Source: an uncultured Christensenella sp. (GTDB lineage Bacteria; Bacillota; Clostridia; Christensenellales; UBA1242). Taken from it: a stretch of DNA of 64,000 bases. Location: NCBI GenBank assembly GCA_910584815.1, contig CAJUBT010000005.1:21222-85221 (forward strand), written 5' to 3'. A model generated the notes under the pieces. That model was not told the origin of the DNA. It made no database searches and worked only from the letters and a program-made list of their open reading frames with translations. Below are positions 27,231 through 28,285 of this stretch, in pieces. Every line of letters starts with the position of its first letter. Position 1 is the first letter of the stretch. A program made the position numbers and the translations under genes.

Positions 27231-27908
27231 TTATGAATAAATAGCCATTTTTTCTAATTTAAATTTACGACAATAAATTAAACTACTTCTTTTAGTTGTT
27301 TCTTTTATAGCGTGATTAGTAAGTTTTGCCACATACTTACCTAATGCTTTTGCGTTTTTATTGCATAATTCACCATCTAAATTACCATAACTCCAGGTTG
27401 TATAATCGAAAAAATCTTTTGCTACTACTGCGTGATAATGTTCCCTTCCATTTTCTTCGCCAAAATCTATATTAGCAACATAATCTTCACAATTTAAACT
27501 ATCTAAGTATCTTGTTACATATCTACGGCGAGTTAATTCACTTGTAGAAGCAAAAATTTTATCAGTAAATGTAAATGTTAAAAACTGGCACTTATTAAAT
27601 GCTAGCATTATTTCTATGCGTTTTTTAAGGCGTTTAACCCTATGATATGTAGCATTATTTATTTTTTCTGCTTCTTTCCACATTTCTTTATTAGTATGAT
27701 TTTGAAAATTATGTATTTTAACTGCACTAGAATAACTCAAATCAGTTAAATCAGAACCAATGTTATTATATTGATTATATTTAAAAATTGCCTTAGAAAC
27801 TTTCTTTTGAAGTTTACAAAGTCCACTTTTTAAAACTTTTGCTTTAAATTCGTAATCTATCACTAAAATGTCCCCTTTTTTAGTTGTTTCTATGCCTAGG
27901 ACGTCCAC
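27231..27908 (-). CDS. HUH-superfamily rolling-circle replication initiator (Rep)
   Basis: Ordered motifs FLTFTF (motif 1), EHYHAVV (HUH) and GKYVAKLTNHAIK (YxxK). The track start GTG at 27908 lies inside a hairpin. An alternative GTG at 27863 has a better RBS (AAAGGGGA, 8-nt spacing). Confidence 0.75.
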   Translation of the reverse strand: MDVLGIETTKKGDILVIDYEFKAKVLKSGLCKLQKKVSKAIFKYNQYNNIGSDLTDLSYSSAVKIHNFQNHTNKEMWKEAEKINNATYHRVKRLKKRIEIMLAFNKCQFLTFTFTDKIFASTSELTRRRYVTRYLDSLNCEDYVANIDFGEENGREHYHAVVAKDFFDYTTWSYGNLDGELCNKNAKALGKYVAKLTNHAIKETTKRSSLIYCRKFKLEKMAIYS

Positions 27909-27935
27909 CTTACCAAGTCAATAAGGTGGACGTCC
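27899..27935. other. Perfect 14-bp GC-rich hairpin, a candidate Rep origin or recognition site
   Basis: GGACGTCCACCTTA (27899-27912), loop CCAAGTCAA, TAAGGTGGACGTCC (27922-27935). Each arm contains the self-palindrome GGACGTCC. No U-run on either strand, so it is not a terminator. Confidence 0.55.
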
Positions 27936-28285
27936 TTAGGCAAATATGTTGTAGTAATAAACATATTGCAGTTAATATGTCCCCTACTCGCCTATTAGAT
28001 GCCATTAAAATGGCAGGCTCGCCACCGTTGCGACCTTCCCTAGCCTTGGTCGCTTTTAATTGGTTATTTAAAATATTTTGGACGCTGTCCAAACCTGCAA
28101 GGAACTAGTCCCTTGACCCCTTTCACACTCGACCGTGTAGGCAATCCTTCCCCGAATTATGTCGGGGAAGGAAATTAATATTATATTCTACCCCATCTTG
28201 TCAAAGGGTGAACATAAAGCAACCATCAATGCTGGCTATTCTTGTTTATCATTCCCCTTTATCTTTGACAAGATATAGTTTTTTA
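27899..28285. other. GC-enriched, hairpin-dense non-coding block (phage intergenic region, or a structured RNA/ssDNA element)
   Basis: Visibly much more G+C than the surrounding DNA. Multiple stems: the 27899-27935 hairpin, GCGACC/GGTCGC (28030-28053), TGGAC/GTCCA (28079-28091), CAAGG/CCTTG (28098-28115), CCTTCCCCG/CGGGGAAGG (28146-28171), and long-range ATCTTGTCAAAGGG (28195-28208) with CCCTTT..TTGACAAGAT (28255-28274). The ORFs here are short and overlap on both strands. Confidence 0.5.

Follow-up and report, generated by a model that had tools for sequence, protein, structure and literature searches.

Within a 64,000-nucleotide (nt) stretch of DNA from an uncultured Christensenella sp. (contig CAJUBT010000005.1, positions 21,222 to 85,221; hereafter the window), a structured non-coding block at 27894-28274 lies immediately upstream of rep, a minus-strand gene for a rolling-circle initiator that starts with a GTG at 27863. 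We consider it probable that this block serves as the cis-acting replication-origin region of an integrated rolling-circle phage, one that is small and resembles filamentous phages in gene content. The block is conserved in relatives, its hairpins covary, the nick motif of its family is that of plasmid pC194, and it is placed beside the initiator gene with a structural bias towards the rep-sense strand. Most likely, the block is an expected part of such a phage and represents neither a new kind of RNA gene nor a new mechanism. Coordinates are collected in Table 1, and relatives are referred to by L numbers.

Results

A G+C-rich, folded block upstream of rep

The window is strongly A+T-rich overall (~22-30% G+C per kb). 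In successive 100-nt intervals across 27850-28249, however, the G+C content is 38-46%, and 40-46% within 27894-28274, compared with 13-29% in the flanking intervals, 15-29% in the neighbouring coding DNA and 7-21% in the non-coding DNA at 26500-27250. A first-pass annotation of this DNA had described a G+C-rich, stem-packed block directly upstream of rep. Composition, the location of the stems and folding against shuffled sequence all confirm that description, as does the position of the block, and every stem that had been named can be located in the sequence. The 14-base-pair (bp) hairpin reported at 27899-27935 is present, although the perfect repeat measures 15 bp and spans 27898-27936.

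Folding of the region 27880-28300 was compared with 100 dinucleotide shuffles per case. As RNA, the plus strand folds at -132.5 kcal/mol (shuffled -89.9, z = -8.1) and the minus strand at -144.6 kcal/mol (shuffled -101.2, z = -7.7); with DNA parameters the minus strand folds at -77.1 kcal/mol (shuffled -40.9, z = -9.1). No shuffle equalled the native sequence in any of these cases (0/100 each). Stem pairs in the window are nearly all Watson-Crick, and folding is about equal on both strands and with DNA parameters, which is typical of DNA-level inverted repeats. By direct reading, the rep-sense strand at 27870-28262 also carries about seven GGGG or AGGG(G)A runs, mostly unpaired in the predicted folds.

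The search of Rfam that the first-pass annotation had proposed matched no known RNA family to the block. At gathering thresholds (Rfam 15) the whole window returned three tRNAs only, all outside the block, and at E <= 10 the block gave only chance matches to generic hairpin models (best E at least 0.16), far below the thresholds. A tRNA/tmRNA scan likewise returned nothing within the block.

The initiator and its relatives

The three HUH motifs of the window Rep fall on invariant alignment columns. Against Pfam the protein gives a weak, sub-threshold match to PF23343 ("Replication-associated protein ORF2/G2P"), and 1972 homologues were found in the protein collection, most of them precomputed as PF23343. 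Judged by these matches, Rep probably belongs to the PF23343 (REP_ORF2-G2P) family and not to Pfam Rep_1. The only deposited relatives were an unverified porcine "Inovirus sp." (35% identity) and Microviridae initiators (28-29%). No relative is encoded on the PLSDB plasmids searched with Rep, and none was found in the copy of IMG/VR scanned with the Rep protein, the Rep alignment and three DNA motifs. The GTDB genomes gave one distant and uninformative match (L001, 35% over 50 residues), and a scan of JGI metagenomes with the core motif described below gave one chance match in an unrelated coding region (L020). We found no characterised origin for the PF23343 family. The "Inovirus sp." record (L025, MT135295.1) has two annotated genes; its Rep relative is an unannotated open reading frame (ORF) at 3088-3822, and the motif GACTTGATATG lies at about 3086-3100, just upstream of the likely ATG of this ORF at 3137.

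In total, 20 loci encoding Rep homologues were retrieved. The nick-hairpin alignment comprises 13 sequences and the full block was compared in 5-6 independent lineages; some coordinates and wobble counts were taken from alignments, pair counts and direct reading. The L002 block is 97.2% identical to that of the window, whereas their rep coding sequences are 87.8% identical. The block is thus better conserved than the gene beside it, which points to purifying selection on the block as nucleic acid.

The putative nick hairpin

A hairpin corresponding to 27894-27941 is found upstream of rep, adjoining or near it, in 13/13 loci compared. Its stem sequence varies whilst the pairing stays: eight pairs (15 cells of the alignment) are changed on both sides, the covariation score was reached by 0/500 shuffles, and 75% of cells are paired, a figure that falls to 35-41% if the partner is shifted by 1-3 columns. 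Moreover, the flank ACGTCnTAGGCATAGA is retained where the stems differ and also where its 5' partner is non-complementary.

On the rep-sense strand the window loop reads TTGACTTGG, a sequence unique within the window. The family consensus of the loop is T(A/T)TCTTGATAAGG, with variants TTGACTTGGTAAGG in the window clade and L021, CTCGATA in L010 and L007b, and the more divergent GGGTTTACTAAGG in L024. At the same loop position CTTGGTA, which differs by one base, is seen in the window, L002, L004, L005, L021 and L026. Cleavage by the phiX174 gene A protein and in the pC194 family is at CTTG/ATA (the slash marks the cut), a motif that the phiX174 origin also carries. The family loop TTATCTTGATAAGG has 12 consecutive nucleotides, TTATCTTGATAA, in common with the pC194 origin TTCTTATCTTGATAATAAGG; the functional origin of pC194 (RepH) is given as TTCTTATCTTGATAATAAGGG (PMC7072734). 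By analogy, the window Rep is predicted to nick CTTG/GTA between minus-strand bases 27914 and 27913. We therefore have good confidence, on comparative grounds, in the nick hairpin as the putative leading-strand origin. The first-pass annotation had placed a (+) origin in this same hairpin, and the proposal is well supported: the hairpin is conserved in all Rep-homologue loci examined, its stem covaries and its loop is a nick motif of the pC194/phiX174 type. The covariation that it had suggested looking for was found both here, as compensatory changes, and in the long hairpin.

The long hairpin

At the far end of the block, an imperfect hairpin has a 12-bp basal stem, ATCTTGTCAAAG / CTTTGACAAGAT, that holds invariant TTGTCAA/TTGACAA, and an inner motif GATAAAGGGGAAkGATAAA...TTTATGTTCACCC. 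The basal stem is retained in the window, L002, L004, L005, L014 and L024, with 5/12 of its pairs changed on both sides (AU to UA, CG to GC, AU to GC, GC to UA). Pairing covers 96.6% of cells as against 37-55% in slid controls, and again 0/500 shuffles reached the covariation score. The inner bulges and helices (GATAAAGGGGAAGGATAAA ... TTTATGTTCACCC) are common to the window, L002, L014 and L024, the Reps of the last two being 47-53% identical to that of the window. The 1.2-kb circle L006 carries a short form of the stem (GGTTGTCAAGG-7 nt-CCTTGACAACC) where its rep ends. The two arms change in step in L014 and L024, AAAG/CTTT becoming AAGG/CCTT or AATC/GATT, and L014 retains the hairpin though it has no divergent gene upstream. 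These complementary changes and the survival of the hairpin in L014 argue that the pairing itself is selected.

The minus origin of f1, which RNA polymerase primes, resembles a single-strand origin in its mode of action. Single-strand origins are large hairpins on the displaced strand that RNA polymerase binds and primes, and they function in a single orientation (PMC5703833, PMC8860593). Persistence of a hairpin in elements whose Reps differ, with TTGACA in duplex form each time, would be expected of such a lagging-strand origin. The long hairpin is accordingly our best candidate for one read by host RNA polymerase, a role that is plausible. The first-pass annotation had seen a (-) origin in the long-range TTGTCAAAG/CTTTGACAA pairing; the hairpin does covary and recur in distant relatives, and the origin function is the part that stays at the level of plausibility.

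When the DNA is double-stranded, each arm of the long hairpin supplies a -35 box: one for the promoter of a divergent gene encoding a DUF2726 protein, the other for a candidate promoter directed towards rep. A -10 box folded from the paired flanks of the hairpin in single-stranded DNA was considered; it works in the window, fails in L004 and L005, and was dropped.

The core, the 11-bp hairpin and the insert

Between the two hairpins lies a nearly invariant core that holds two small hairpins (28099-28115 and 28077-28093). Save for loop bases and one flipped pair, the core is identical in five lineages whose Reps are 65-88% identical and whose rep coding sequences differ by about 12-22%. In the neighbouring 11-bp hairpin, pairs are changed on both sides (C-G to U-A and U-A to C-G) in L004, L005 and L026, and T.G wobbles in these three loci pair on the rep-sense strand only. 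Other clades have different hairpins (L014, L024) or none (L012, L021) in this position. A clade-specific, sequence-invariant element looks like a signal read by phage-specific proteins, for example in packaging. Both the core and the 11-bp hairpin are clade-specific, and they may be the likeliest places in the block for a packaging signal or some other site that a protein recognises.

A further insert with extra hairpins is present in the window and in L002/L003 and absent from L004, L005 and L026; it is dispensable for the shared architecture. For the orientation-dependent packaging hairpin that an Ff-type region would have, 28079-28172 and this insert are the sole candidates. The ribosome-binding motif AGGGGACAT(T/A)TTA occurs twice on the minus strand, at 27864-27876 and 27973-27985, and the latter is a near copy of the rep motif, AGGGGACATATTA, carried by the insert.

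Strand bias

The few wobbles found in relatives all pair on the rep-sense strand, as G.U/U.G at the base of the long hairpin and as U.G in the 11-bp and 28077-28093 hairpins. The consensus fold reaches -68.9 kcal/mol with 63 pairs on the rep-sense strand and -60.7 kcal/mol with 55 pairs on the antisense strand. The rep-sense strand carries the nick motif, and hence is the displaced strand, and it is also the strand of the rep mRNA. This asymmetry therefore fits the origin model and also allows an mRNA leader, a role that would be compatible with an origin.

Table 1. Features of the block and of the surrounding prophage (positions in the window).
Feature	Position	Strand	Basis or remark
Nick hairpin, candidate double-strand origin	27894-27941	minus	19-bp stem, one bulge; loop 27913-27921
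Perfect inverted repeat, 15 bp	27898-27912 / 27922-27936		extends to 27894-27941 with one bulge
Conserved 3' flank, rep-sense ...CTAGGCATAGAA	27888-27899	minus	candidate Rep recognition sequence
Sub-clade insert, ~117 nt, extra hairpins	27942-28058	minus	GCGACC/GGTCGC, GCCAT/ATGGC, ACATATT/AATATGT
Stem GCGACC/GGTCGC	28031-28036 / 28049-28054		
Nearly invariant core, ~41 nt, rep-sense GGGTCAAGGGACnnGTTCCTTGCAGGTnTGGACAGnGTCCA	28079-28119	minus	candidate packaging signal or protein-binding site
Stem TGGAC/GTCCA	28079-28083 / 28087-28091		
Stem CAAGG/CCTTG	28099-28103 / 28111-28115		
11-bp G+C-rich hairpin TCCTTCCCCGA/TCGGGGAAGGA	28145-28172	minus	folding and pair changes
Long imperfect hairpin, ~80 nt, candidate single-strand origin	28195-28274	minus	alignment and pair counts
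Long-range stem ATCTTGTCAAAG / CTTTGACAAGAT	28195-28206 / 28263-28274		
Candidate rep promoter TTGACA-16-AATATT	28177-28204	minus	10/12; not conserved in L004/L005
Divergent DUF2726 promoter TTGACA-18-TATAAT	28265-28294	plus	12/12 consensus; also in L004/L005
rep, 210-amino-acid HUH rolling-circle initiator, GTG start	27231-27863	minus	motifs FLTFTF, EHYHAV, YVAKLTNH
rep ribosome-binding site AAAAGGGGAC	27870-27879	minus	6 nt ahead of GTG; GGGAC conserved in relatives
DUF2726 membrane protein gene	28330-28998	plus	Pfam PF10881, E = 3e-15; bounds the block, divergent from rep
Whole prophage, ~7.2 kb	27086-34322	minus	palindromic end sites and gene order of L004

The prophage and its neighbours

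The palindromic site ATTCGCAAAA-N6/9-TTTTGCGAAT is present at both ends of the prophage (27070-27095 and 34294-34322) and once in the relative L004. L004 has a terminal overlap of 141 nt, so that it is a circle of 7472 nt, and its gene order is the same as that of the prophage. L011 and L012 also have terminal overlaps, are ~8 kb in length and share this gene order. The prophage ends (27066-27101, 34294-34330) share a 17-nt direct repeat, GTTTTGCGAATAGTTTA, at 27085 and 34312. Since the phage encodes no integrase, integration probably proceeds via a host Xer-type recombinase.

The DUF2726 gene occupies the same position in L004, L005, L010 and L019. Its product has an N-terminal membrane segment, and the gene is opposite in strand to every other phage gene; L012, L021 and L024 have a reverse-strand gene for 78-88 amino acids in its place. 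It could be an exclusion or defence gene. Beyond it, the minus strand encodes a 573-amino-acid protein, several small membrane proteins, a 333-amino-acid membrane-anchored P-loop ATPase and an 89-amino-acid protein. In the ATPase (32255-33256, minus strand), a Walker A motif comes after membrane segments at the N-terminus. Against Pfam and PHROGs it gave generic P-loop matches only and no Zot/pI, and its identification as Zot/pI was dropped on this account; nor was its similarity to the Zot annotated in MT135295 significant. Thus, whilst the gene content resembles that of filamentous phages, the want of a recognisable Zot/pI means that we can only infer a filamentous nature. In this phage group, the machinery for morphogenesis is either very divergent or of a different kind.

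Amongst the other genes of the window is an XerC/D-like gene at 22969-24015. Beside the prophage, a host gene for 298 amino acids (25717-26613, plus strand) had no Pfam match in our scan of the window proteins; an identical copy in L019 (9085-9981) has a precomputed match to PF26305 (CD_NTase_C), and the gene may encode a nucleotidyltransferase of a defence system.

Two further kinds of element carry parts of the block. In L014 (1-10497), rep, the long hairpin and the nick hairpin lie within a larger element with a tyrosine integrase, a helix-turn-helix regulator and a serine recombinase, which suggests that the replication module is exchanged among different kinds of mobile elements. L006 (1-1246), L007 (1-1239) and L008 (1-1232) appear to be complete circles of ~1216-1217 nt with only rep and hairpins, their ends overlapping by 30 nt exactly in L006 and by 15 nt in L008 and agreeing at 21/22 bases in L007. 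Their Reps are ~47-50% identical to that of the window, and they carry the TATCTTGATA nick hairpin (two copies in L007) and a promoter of their own. Moreover, in dozens of Rep clusters the longest contig is only 1.1-1.5 kb. These ~1.2-kb rep-only circles may represent minimal rolling-circle replicons, as a family of high abundance, or else phage satellites belonging to this group.

Discussion

We propose the following working model for the block, with coordinates referring to the minus, that is the rep-sense, strand. On the supercoiled replicative form, the HUH Rep would bind the conserved flank (...GACGTCCTAGGCATAGA) together with the extruded hairpin 27894-27941. It would then cut the loop at CTTG/GTA (27914/27913) and become covalently joined to the 5' end through the tyrosine of motif III. 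The free 3'-OH would prime leading-strand synthesis by host enzymes, displacing the rep-sense strand, which Rep would re-ligate into a circle at the regenerated site. The single-stranded circle would fold, and the 28195-28274 hairpin with its duplex TTGACA would recruit RNA polymerase to prime the complementary strand. Alternatively, the circle may be packaged via a signal probably within 28079-28172. As duplex, the region would also hold the promoter of the DUF2726 gene and, facing the other way, probably that of rep.

Several observations weigh against this interpretation. The window loop has G and not A just 3' of the predicted nick, unlike the family consensus, and the core is conserved but without covariation. 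The ssoA class of single-strand origins is marked by the RSB sequence TTATGCCGAGAAAATTT and the CS-6 hexamer TAGCGT/A (PMC4598088). Even with 3 mismatches allowed, RSB (5'-TTATGCCGAGAAAATTT-3') was not found in the window, and CS-6 (TAGCGW) was not present within 27880-28300; among the relatives TAGCGT is found in the homologous terminal loop of L024 only. We rejected membership of the ssoA class on the absence of both motifs from the window block. Furthermore, the TTGACA arms double as -35 boxes, which could alone explain their invariance, and the full block is seen in only 5-6 independent lineages. As no Zot/pI could be recognised in the ATPase, an Ff-type (f1/M13/fd) packaging signal is an assumption. 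Lastly, the nicking position, priming by RNA polymerase and packaging are all deduced by us.

One alternative assigns an RNA function to most of the block (28079-28172, whether or not the insert is included). It would be either a long 5' leader, structured and part of the rep mRNA, or a small regulatory or antisense RNA that sets the Rep level and copy number, leaving only the last hairpin as an origin. Countertranscript control of copy number is known from many rolling-circle plasmids. The nick hairpin lies too close to the rep ribosome-binding site for a promoter to fit between them, so part of the block is probably transcribed, and the only decent rep-sense promoter (28204-28177, 10/12) would yield a ~300-nt leader beginning at the 11-bp hairpin. 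G.U pairs extend helices on the rep-sense strand only, including a 6-bp helix with three G.U around the 11-bp hairpin; that hairpin also resembles a weak terminator on the plus strand, and the invariance of the core sequence would suit an RNA as well. However, this promoter is a weak candidate because it is not conserved in L004 and L005, and a search of the block for a plus-strand promoter that could drive an antisense RNA found none. The terminator-like 28077-28093 hairpin lacks its T-run in relatives, and we rejected the idea of an attenuator for this reason. The helices are almost all Watson-Crick and fold equally well as DNA, entire hairpin modules are gained or lost between clades, and Rfam holds no matching family. 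We regard an RNA role for most of the block as unlikely. A reading in which the left part of the block is a double-stranded regulatory region only, its divergent promoters having their -35 boxes in an inverted-repeat operator for a dimeric regulator and the DNA having no single-strand function, can draw on the perfect TTGACA-18-TATAAT and the TTGACA-16-AATATT in the two arms and on conservation of the former in L004 and L005. Yet the complementary changes of the arms in L014 and L024 are needed for pairing and not for two independent half-sites, L014 keeps the hairpin without a divergent gene upstream, this stem recurs in the L006 mini-circle as a short hairpin where rep ends, and inner helices and bulges are conserved too. 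An operator alone is therefore improbable.

The remaining alternatives carry hardly any weight. Two ORFs with TTG starts do exist mechanically in the block, at 27884-28108 (plus strand, 74 amino acids) and 27910-28092 (minus strand, 60 amino acids), and the first-pass annotation had allowed for a conserved small protein, naming the latter. This is refuted by L004, L005 and L026, which lack the ~117 nt (27942-28058) that make up most of both ORFs and keep the conserved elements on either side; moreover, neither ORF has a Pfam match, and conservation tracks stems and loops with codon periodicity absent. Prophages often integrate beside G+C-rich RNA genes, and the block might on that basis be host DNA at the integration junction, such as a non-coding RNA gene or an attachment site. 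The block lies inside the free circular relative L004, however, and the palindromic attachment sites (27070-27095, 34294-34322) are outside it, so that it is internal to the prophage and not host DNA; nor does it contain a tRNA, tmRNA or Rfam match. That the block is host DNA, or that it encodes a protein, is in each case extremely improbable. There is also a composite possibility, which we hold to be rather doubtful, in which the arms of the long hairpin would serve as -35 boxes in duplex DNA whilst the paired TTGACA recruits RNA polymerase in the displaced strand, and the 41-nt core would be a new phage-clade-specific packaging or regulatory signal, perhaps exploited by the ~1.2-kb rep-only circles.

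As an origin region, the block shares features with three known systems. Like the double-strand origin of the pC194 family and the phiX174 gene A origin, it sets an HUH initiator gene beside its own predicted nick site, with the rep-sense strand as the nicked one, and the family loop has the 12 consecutive bases in common with pC194. Unlike pC194, the window encodes a Rep of PF23343 (ORF2/G2P) and not of Pfam Rep_1, and no PLSDB plasmid offers a relative of this Rep. A further difference from pC194 and phiX174 is that a long, covarying G+C-rich hairpin holds the nick motif in its loop and has a conserved flank on its 3' side; in the window the motif is the variant CTTGGTA.

The intergenic region of Ff phages is ordered as packaging hairpin, minus origin, plus origin and then gene II. 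Here too there is a single large non-coding region of a small circular genome (circular relatives ~7.5-8 kb) immediately upstream of the initiator gene, with a series of hairpins of which the nick hairpin is nearest that gene; the f1 minus origin likewise has one hairpin with a duplex -35-like TTGACA. In contrast to Ff, the initiator family and the nick motif differ, the latter being pC194-like, a reverse-strand cargo gene (DUF2726) borders the region, and the ATPase is not recognisable as Zot/pI. A blastn search of the block against 50,697 phage records gave no match, and hence no homology to an Ff intergenic region. The Ff-type resemblance noted in the first-pass annotation therefore holds for the position upstream of the replication gene and is positional only, as sequence similarity to any deposited phage is absent. 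Like ssoA, as defined in PMC5703833, PMC8860593 and PMC4598088, the long hairpin is extensive (~80 nt) and imperfect and lies on the displaced strand; sequence is conserved in its internal loops and loop-distal stem, and it is kept across elements with different Reps. It differs in being about half the length of the ~160-nt ssoA and in its want of RSB and CS-6.

Taken together, these data provide a concrete origin map, which places the nick hairpin and its predicted cut as well as candidates for the single-strand origin and the packaging region. It applies to small rolling-circle phages and mini-replicons that form a large family, so far essentially uncharacterised. The family comes from gut-type metagenomes and comprises about 2000 Rep clusters, none of them in PLSDB or in the copy of IMG/VR searched. 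To specialists this will be a useful annotation and an unsurprising one. Such origin maps are needed for shuttle and phagemid vectors in low-G+C gut bacteria that are hard to manipulate, and they aid the recognition of these elements in assemblies.

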